In this document: one piece after another, positions 16,082 to 17,314 of the stretch
How the letters are laid out: every line of letters starts with the position of its first letter
Position numbering within the stretch: the stretch's first letter is position 1
Origin: Chlamydiota bacterium
Lineage (GTDB): Bacteria > Chlamydiota > Chlamydiia > Chlamydiales > JAJFMB01
Length of the DNA stretch: 30,136 nucleotides
Direction of reading: 5' to 3'
NCBI GenBank assembly: GCA_021772355.1
Contig: JAJFMB010000014.1
Span: forward strand, 1 to 30,136
Translations under genes and position numbers: made by a program
Notes under the pieces: model-generated
Told to the model about the DNA's origin: nothing
Database searches by the model: none
Seen by the model: only the letters and a program-made list of their open reading frames with translations

Positions 16082-17314
16082 ATGAAAAAATTCTGTCTCT
16101 TAATATTATTTCTTACCACCTCGCTGCATGCAGAGACGTCGATAGGAACTCCTCTCTCTCCAACGGCAACGAAGGTACTTTTTTTAGGATCCGGGGAACT
16201 GGGAAAAGAGGTTGTGATCGAGCTGCAACGTTTCGGCGTTGAAGTGATTGCAGTTGATCGTTACGCCAACGCTCCTGCGATGCAGGTCGCTCACCGCTCT
16301 CATGTCATTTCCATGCTGGATGGAGAAGCACTGCGACAGGTTATCGAATTGGAACAGCCGCATTATATCGTTCCAGAAATTGAAGCGATTGCAACAGACA
16401 CCTTAATTGAATTAGAGCAAGAGGGATTTACTGTGATTCCTACCGCAAAAGCTGCAAAACTCACCATGAACAGAGAAGGAATCAGAAGGCTAGCCTCTGA
16501 GGAATTAGGGTTGAAGACTTCACGTTATCTTTTTGCCGACAGCAAAGAGGAGTATGTCGATGCAGTACACGAAATCGGTATCCCTTGTGTCGTGAAACCC
16601 ATCATGAGCTCCTCCGGTAAAGGGCAATCTGTGATTCGTTCTGAAGATGATCTTGAATCGGCGTGGGACTATGCGCAAATGGGTGCGCGTGGTGGTGCAG
16701 GAAAAGTGATCGTGGAACAATTTGTTCCTTTTGATTACGAAATCACTCTACTTACTGTTCGTCATATCGATGGCACTCTTTTTTGCGAGCCAATTGGGCA
16801 TTTGCAAATTGATGGCGACTACCGAGAGTCGTGGCAGCCGCAGCCAATGACAAAAGACCTCTTAGCAACAGCTCAGGAAATGGCAAAAAAAGTCACTGAT
16901 GCGCTTGGCGGACGTGGTATTTTTGGAGTGGAATTCTTTATTAAAGGGGACGATGTGTATTTTAGCGAAGTGTCGCCAAGACCGCACGACACAGGACTTG
17001 TGACACTGATATCACAAGACCTATCAGAATTTGCTCTGCATGCGCGCGCCATTTTAGGACTACCCATCCCTGGCATAAAGCAGTTTGGCCCCGCAGCTTC
17101 AAGTGCTCTTTTAGTCGAAGGAACCTCTGAACAAGTCAGCTTCCATCAACTAGAACAAGCTCTTGCTCTACCAAACACGCAACTCCGTCTCTTTGGAAAG
17201 CCCAATGTCAACGGTCACCGCCGTATGGGTGTTGGCCTCGCAACCGGCAGCACGCTAGAAGAGGCGCGTGAAACAGCAAAGCATGTCACAAACAGTATCG
17301 ACATAGAGCTTTAA
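16082..17314 (+). CDS. purT: Formate-dependent phosphoribosylglycinamide formyltransferase (GAR transformylase 2) with N-terminal signal-peptide-like extension
   Basis: [67 protein letters not shown] and RRMGV motifs, preceded by [17 protein letters not shown]. Confidence 0.96.

Follow-up and report, generated by a model that had tools for sequence, protein, structure and literature searches.

The window (the whole stretch of 30,136 nucleotides that was analysed) contains a purT open reading frame on the forward strand, which starts with ATG, spans positions 16082 to 17314 and encodes 410 amino acids; the features of the locus are collected in Table 1. The source is a 2.21-Mb MAG in 333 contigs (81% complete, 6% contamination), in which purT lies on contig C36. 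The product scores 649.3 bits against the PurT equivalog NF006766 (cut-off 339) and 629.1 bits against TIGR01142 (cut-off 502), and its domains follow in the expected order: preATP-grasp (PF22660, residues 31-126), ATP-grasp (PF02222, residues 139-317) and PurT C-terminal (PF21244, residues 338-406). Chain residues 2-390 of E. coli PurT (1EYZ/1KJ8) align with residues 19-408 of the window protein (E = 1e-167). All 176 near-invariant columns (at least 97% conserved, 121 homologues) are kept, a count made over the whole alignment. Judged from its sequence, the window PurT is an intact enzyme and a full member of the PurT family. Its likeness to E. coli PurT lies in the end-to-end alignment of the mature part, the shared domain order and the retained near-invariant columns. 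It differs in carrying a 17-residue signal-like leader, in having no Met at the canonical start, and in being encoded by a stand-alone gene inserted between unrelated genes, with pathway partners that are themselves leader-bearing.

Table 1. Features of the purT locus, the purine genes of the same genome and loci of contig L107. Positions without a contig or locus label refer to the window.
Feature	Location	Strand	Basis
SAM-methyltransferase gene, left flank of the insertion	15303..15992	-	43-53% identity to G001/G002
Promoter-like TTTTCA, 18 nt, TATCAT, about 70 nt 5' of the ATG	15982..16011	+	9 of 12 positions matched
Segment inserted relative to the family's other genomes	15993..17363	.	synteny with G001, G002
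Weak Shine-Dalgarno-like TAGGT, 6 nt before the ATG	16072..16076	+	read from the sequence
Signal-peptide-like leader, 17 codons: n-region M-K-K, 12-residue hydrophobic core, c-region ending L-H-A	16082..16132	+	sequence, n/h/c detector
GAG (Glu18) at the canonical initiator Met position; predicted +1 after cleavage	16133..16135	+	sequence, homologues, E. coli alignment
Mature PurT, formate- and ATP-dependent GAR transformylase, residues 18-410 plus stop codon	16133..17314	+	profiles, domains, conserved columns
Palindromic GC-rich hairpin with T runs on each side, bidirectional terminator-like, between convergent purT and mgtE	17332..17355	.	
mgtE magnesium transporter gene, right flank of the insertion	17364..18836	-	70-76% identity to G001/G002
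PurF, PVC-type long	C254, L062:1196-3007; leader L062:1196-1258		profile search and detector
PurL, large single-chain	end of C59 and start of C104, L060:3445-6585, L061:2-787; leader L060:3445-3513		
PurM	C104, L061:2227-3321; leader L061:3271-3321	-	
PurC-PurK-PurE fusion	C165/C67, L064:2-1645 and L063:1609-3126; leader L064:1586-1645	-	
PurD, C-terminal part only, N-terminus cut by the contig end	C146		
L107 loci: PyrD-PyrE-PyrF triple fusion, IMP dehydrogenase, two tandem PurP-like genes	3058-5433, 7132-8619, 11809-13979		

A sequence-only reading of this DNA had described a Sec-type leader on PurT, and its n/h/c design was confirmed. Lys2 and Lys3 are followed by an uncharged core of 12 residues with a mean Kyte-Doolittle value of 2.45, and L-H-A precedes Glu18. 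Since the family profile (NF006766 position 2) and E. coli PurT both begin at residue 19, the extension lies wholly outside the enzyme. Its n-region, core and length fall within the Sec range (15-30 residues, core of about 7-15). Tat and lipoprotein features are absent, as the leader contains no Arg and its Cys5 lies inside the n/h boundary without a lipobox. The predicted cleavage site has Ala at -1 and Leu at -3, and is accepted by the heuristic; Leu at -3 is permitted by the -3/-1 rule, but is less common. The S-x-A site given in the earlier reading was a miscount, the Ser being at -4.

In 99 of the 120 closest PurT homologues, drawn from 5.8 billion proteins, the initiator Met of a Met-x-x-Ile/Leu-Gly-Thr start aligns with Glu18 of the window protein. 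The claim that no start codon lies near the canonical position was borne out: the codon there is GAG, and after the ATG at 16082 the next ATG, GTG or TTG in frame is not reached until V45, beyond the GSGELGKE loop. The related claim, that the predicted cleavage would restore a near-normal N-terminus, also stands, Glu18 being at the canonical Met position. An in-frame TAA lies 7 codons 5' of the purT ATG. Clearer Shine-Dalgarno sequences (GGAGG/AGGAG) than that of purT precede the leader ATGs of purM and purC-K-E in the same genome. The promoter-like site upstream of purT would put the entire leader inside the transcript; promoter-like sites in the region are no more numerous than in shuffled sequence, which makes this weak evidence. 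A search of the same genome for a duplicated source found no second copy of the leader DNA.

Leaders were called by a simple n/h/c heuristic detector, which gives false positives, for example on a citrate synthase. It accepts 19.6% of the ORFs of at least 150 aa in the same genome, and 5.9% of the ATG-started open peptides from the genome's non-coding DNA. Among the top 120 PurT homologues, the window protein alone bears a leader. PurT is rare in the order: of the 400 genomes scored, 4 were found to have it, and in the other three its start is normal. For the single purT gene, chance rates alone would leave an accident following the loss of a start codon plausible.

The earlier reading pictured a lone PurT in a nucleotide-importing chlamydia, acting on host GAR. 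This picture fell, since PurF, PurD, PurL, PurM, a PurC-PurK-PurE fusion and two PurB proteins are encoded on other contigs of the same genome. PurN, PurH, PurP and GuaA were not found in this 81% complete MAG; with no PurN found, PurT is the only GAR transformylase found, and would fill step 3 of the pathway. Leaders were flagged on PurT, PurF, PurL, PurM and PurC-PurK-PurE, that is, on five of the five purine proteins with a visible N-terminus, PurB excepted. In PurF, PurL, PurM and PurC-PurK-PurE, a short basic stretch, a hydrophobic core of 8-14 residues and a small-residue site lie before profile positions 1-3, and none of the four has an alternative start near its canonical position. If the genes are assumed to be independent, the chance of five leaders in five lies between about 3e-4 (ORF background) and 7e-7 (random peptides). 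The recurrence of leaders across the pathway and across lineages (see below) is what argues against a chance origin of the PurT leader.

The purine genes of this genome are scattered singly among unrelated genes and do not form an operon. PurC-PurK-PurE is a single ORF of about 1040 residues, in which contigs C165 and C67 are joined by an exact 31-nt overlap; the roughly 165 residues after PurE give just a weak second AIRC match. To our knowledge, this triple fusion has not been described elsewhere. Both PurB copies, PyrD and a GuaB-like protein have no leader. The second PurB (L234, C13:820-2688, minus strand) carries about 190 extra residues at its N-terminus, which match no family and do not begin like a signal peptide. 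Leaders do occur on a PyrE-PyrF fusion (L233, C99:1-970, minus strand, continued on C250) and on a GDP-mannose 4,6-dehydratase (L232, C92:72-1208, minus strand). A random sample of leader-positive ORFs from the same genome also held a sulfotransferase, a GT92 glycosyltransferase and two DUF6492 proteins. A LepB-like ORF for signal peptidase I was found on C315, and two secretins on C290 and C307.

The predicted cut in PurF, between V-N-G and C, would expose the catalytic N-terminal Cys. In ordinary members of this PurF family, the Cys is preceded by a stretch of eight residues, which we infer to be a removable propeptide, as in Bacillus subtilis PurF. Leader-bearing relatives of PurF retain a remnant of the stretch, E-E-I-G-H-E, between the leader and the Cys. 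In the leader-bearing purine enzymes, the early mature parts are acidic or neutral, and the charges flank the core in the N-in, C-out sense.

Leaders were also found on 7 of the 120 best PurM homologues among 5.8 billion proteins; these are the top-ranked ones (52-63% identity), and their leaders differ in sequence and share the same design. The closest of the 120 best PurF homologues are likewise leader-bearing (9 of 120). Three other families among the 400 genomes of the order have a leader-type PurM; they are represented by genomes G235, G058 and G365. In G235, PurM and PurD are fused behind a leader, and a large PurL (60% identical) begins with a hydrophobic extension; both of these leaders were judged by eye, being unflagged by the detector. 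The fusion (L072:178-2568, minus strand) has 796 residues, and is named at NCBI as PurD of 'Chlamydiales bacterium' (MFZ0565355.1). A leader-PurM is present in G058, and in G365, a genome of 9 contigs, it adjoins a leader-PurC-PurE. Whole-genome searches found neither PurN nor PurT in G365 or G235, only fmt, so that both appear to have partial purine sets, with step 3 unaccounted for; PurD and PurL were also not found in G365. Two further genomes of the order, G008 and G028, carry ordinary pur clusters without leaders and with a PurL of a different type. As these clusters are leaderless and 30-46% identical, the leader-bearing genes constitute a separate gene set.

The habit extends beyond purine synthesis in contig L107 (32% GC), where leaders were found on PurF, PurD, IMP dehydrogenase (GuaB) and a PyrD-PyrE-PyrF fusion; two PurP proteins, GuaA and PyrG on the same contig have none. 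The PurP-like genes encode DUF1246/DUF1297 proteins, which we take to be formate-dependent FAICAR synthetases. Another contig with a leader-PurM (L067:441-15351) has signal-like starts on a PfkB kinase, a GDP-mannose dehydratase, a GDP-fucose synthase and fucosyltransferases, and, by eye and unflagged by the detector, on a myo-inositol oxygenase and a sulfotransferase. A PurM nearly identical to that of L067 (372 aa, HLB59638.1) is labelled Bdellovibrionota at NCBI, and G365, a genome with a similar PurM, belongs to the order of the window.

A second leader-bearing PurT was found in an uncultured contig (L106; 37% GC, with ankyrin-repeat genes) that also gives the best PurF match. It carries a purT-purD-purF-purM-purC/E operon in which every product bears a leader. 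The L106 purT has a good AGGAG 5' of its start and a 21-residue leader of different sequence and the same design, and its product is 72% identical to the window PurT. A free quick tree left the two leader-bearing PurTs unjoined, and a constrained tree that joined them was better than the free-search tree by 17.5 log-likelihood units (p-AU 0.79), so that the L106 PurT is likely the sister of the window PurT. The joining of the two suggests that purT probably already had its leader when it was acquired.

The two other genomes of the family (G001 and G002) have bipA, then mgtE, then the methyltransferase gene, the latter pair overlapping by 4 bp. In the window, purT separates mgtE and the methyltransferase gene and lies on the opposite strand; given the overlap in the relatives, purT is a lineage-specific insertion. 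The earlier view of a horizontally acquired, proteobacterial-like PurT is, therefore, upheld in part: the gene is inserted, and its closest ordinary relatives are proteobacterial (73-77% identity), whereas the likely sister relationship to L106 speaks against the addition of the leader in this lineage. No base-composition signs of recent transfer were found, purT matching its neighbours. Capture of the 5' end of a resident secreted gene was considered as a source of the leader and ruled out, because the flanking genes overlap in the relatives and no gene lies between them. At window positions 13383-15302, a gene for a TPR_3-repeat protein precedes a pair of ORFs (273 and 194 aa) that match no known family. 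The TPR_3-repeat protein is taken as a type III secretion chaperone, and the next two ORFs are possibly translocators; a similar chaperone-plus-ORF pair adjoins purL on C59.

The reading that we consider probable is that PurT is Sec-exported and cleaved after Ala17, as one step of an exported set of purine enzymes. Translation from the ATG at 16082 would be followed by Sec transport across the inner membrane and a signal peptidase I cut after Ala17, releasing a PurT that starts E-T-S-I-G-T, essentially a normal N-terminus. The enzyme would then carry out step 3, the conversion of GAR to FGAR with formate and ATP and without folate, within an export-tagged set of PurF, PurT, PurL, PurM and PurC-PurK-PurE. 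Repurposing for export, which had been proposed for PurT as a lone enzyme, thus survives as the best-supported reading on account of the leaders across the pathway; the lone enzyme does not. Translocation and cleavage of the leader-bearing enzymes are here inferred from features of their N-termini. The charge distribution, the short cores and the PurF cut site favour a cleaved signal rather than an anchor.

An anchor would nevertheless account for a separate hydrophobic N-terminus on every enzyme. If the N-termini were left uncleaved, the purine enzymes might form an assembly bound to the inner membrane, on its periplasmic face or, against the charge rule, on its cytoplasmic face, where the leaderless PurB could still cooperate; the sub-optimal Leu at -3 of PurT would also fit. 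This arrangement is unlikely, as cores of 8-14 residues are too short for a stable membrane span, small residues occupy -1 and -3 after every one of them, the positive N side and acidic C side predict a C-out orientation, and a PurF cut just before the catalytic Cys is sensible only with cleavage. PurB could also be reconciled with the rest of the pathway if some or all translation began at a rare codon within the leader or past it, so that PurT was made in a cytosolic form, alone or alongside an exported one. Candidate codons are an in-frame CTG at 16124 (Leu15) and an ATA at 16142 (Ile21), and a weak promoter-like site at 16082-16109 would begin transcripts within the leader. However, neither codon is preceded by a Shine-Dalgarno sequence, the promoter-like match is at chance level, and the same device would be needed independently for PurM, PurL, PurF, PurC-PurK-PurE and the L106 operon, none of which starts near the canonical position. 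Rare-codon initiation is, on this evidence, improbable, and somewhat more so than anchoring.

Far less weight is given to an accident, in which the start codon was lost, an upstream ATG rescued translation and T-rich DNA happened to encode a hydrophobic peptide, leaving PurT cytosolic and impaired or decaying. The rate at which random non-coding ATG peptides pass the leader test lends this some plausibility, and no relative above 77% identity is available in which conservation of the exact PurT leader could be checked. Leaders on all five purine enzymes, on the closest relatives of PurM and PurF, and on the L106 PurT, the likely sister of the window protein, make it very improbable. A decaying gene would also be at odds with the retention of every near-invariant column, and the base composition of purT, equal to that of the genome, points to long residence under selection. 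A binning or assembly artefact, in which the leader-bearing pur contigs came from a co-binned parasite, for example a Dependentiae bacterium, and PurT were isolated after all, appears just as remote. The estimated contamination of the MAG and the small size of its contigs leave some room for it, and chlamydial synteny ties only purT to the genome, the other pur contigs being assigned by composition and neighbours. The genome has a GC content of 42.5% and these contigs 42-46%; in C67 and C59 the GC is slightly raised and the tetranucleotide correlation lower. Yet two genes on C59, a fused aroD-aroE and one for a TPR_3-repeat type III chaperone, are typical of chlamydiae. Leader-bearing PurM, PurL and PurC fusions occur in independent genomes of the same order, one of them in 9 contigs, and purT itself lies within conserved chlamydial synteny.

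Under Sec export of the set, the enzymes would act in the periplasm, in the vacuole lumen or in the host cytosol. Textbooks place purine synthesis and its six ATP-dependent steps in the cytoplasm, and outside it these steps would require host ATP at the site. The enzymes would presumably also use glutamine, glycine, formate, bicarbonate and aspartate of the host, and their products would be re-imported by nucleotide transporters, or completed by host enzymes. That PurT uses formate, and PurK bicarbonate, in place of folate cofactors is in keeping with a folate-free compartment. The main difficulty for this reading is that PurB is leaderless and PurH was not found: an exported pathway would be divided among compartments, unless its intermediates passed through membranes or the host supplied the absent enzymes.

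Several known systems resemble parts of this arrangement. Gehre et al. (2016; PMC4829429) describe glycogen-metabolism enzymes of Chlamydia trachomatis that are secreted into the inclusion lumen, which is likewise a normally cytoplasmic, nucleotide-dependent pathway moved outside and fed with host-supplied substrates. In the genome of the window, by contrast, the signals are of the Sec type and the pathway is purine synthesis. The glycogen enzymes reportedly exit by type III secretion and have no Sec leaders. Microsporidia offer a further parallel, as two papers (PMC6460350, PMC3976299) report a secreted hexokinase and other cytosolic-type enzymes with signal peptides, exposed to the host; here too an intracellular parasite puts signal peptides on otherwise cytosolic enzymes. 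These parasites differ in being eukaryotic, in using ER-type secretion and in exporting single enzymes rather than most of a pathway. Microsporidia import host nucleotides. A route beyond the periplasm exists, since the periplasmic-type chlamydial protease cHtrA has been located both within the inclusion and beyond it, in the cytosol of the host (PMC3107777). Its role as a protease sets it apart from a biosynthetic enzyme. cHtrA carries a Sec leader, and CPAF behaves alike. A literature search for signal peptides on purine enzymes of chlamydiae or Dependentiae turned up nothing relevant, and the tagging of anabolic enzymes for export is apparently an undescribed habit.

More tentatively, and with less confidence than is placed in the export of PurT itself, these observations raise the possibility that certain Chlamydiales, and probably Dependentiae, Sec-export most of a folate-independent purine pathway to the vacuole lumen or the host cytosol, and re-import the nucleotides or leave the host to finish them. 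The exported enzymes would make nucleotides from PRPP, amino acids, formate and ATP of the host, and this outsourced anabolism may have been passed between unrelated intracellular parasites as leader-bearing genes. If true, conserved export leaders on nearly all purine enzymes would change the metabolic reconstruction of obligate intracellular bacteria, for which genome-based models currently count such pur genes as cytoplasmic de novo synthesis. The recruitment of a leader-bearing purT would mean that the tag travels with the gene, and glycogen metabolism, the single known chlamydial pathway moved outside the cell, would be joined by nucleotide anabolism.
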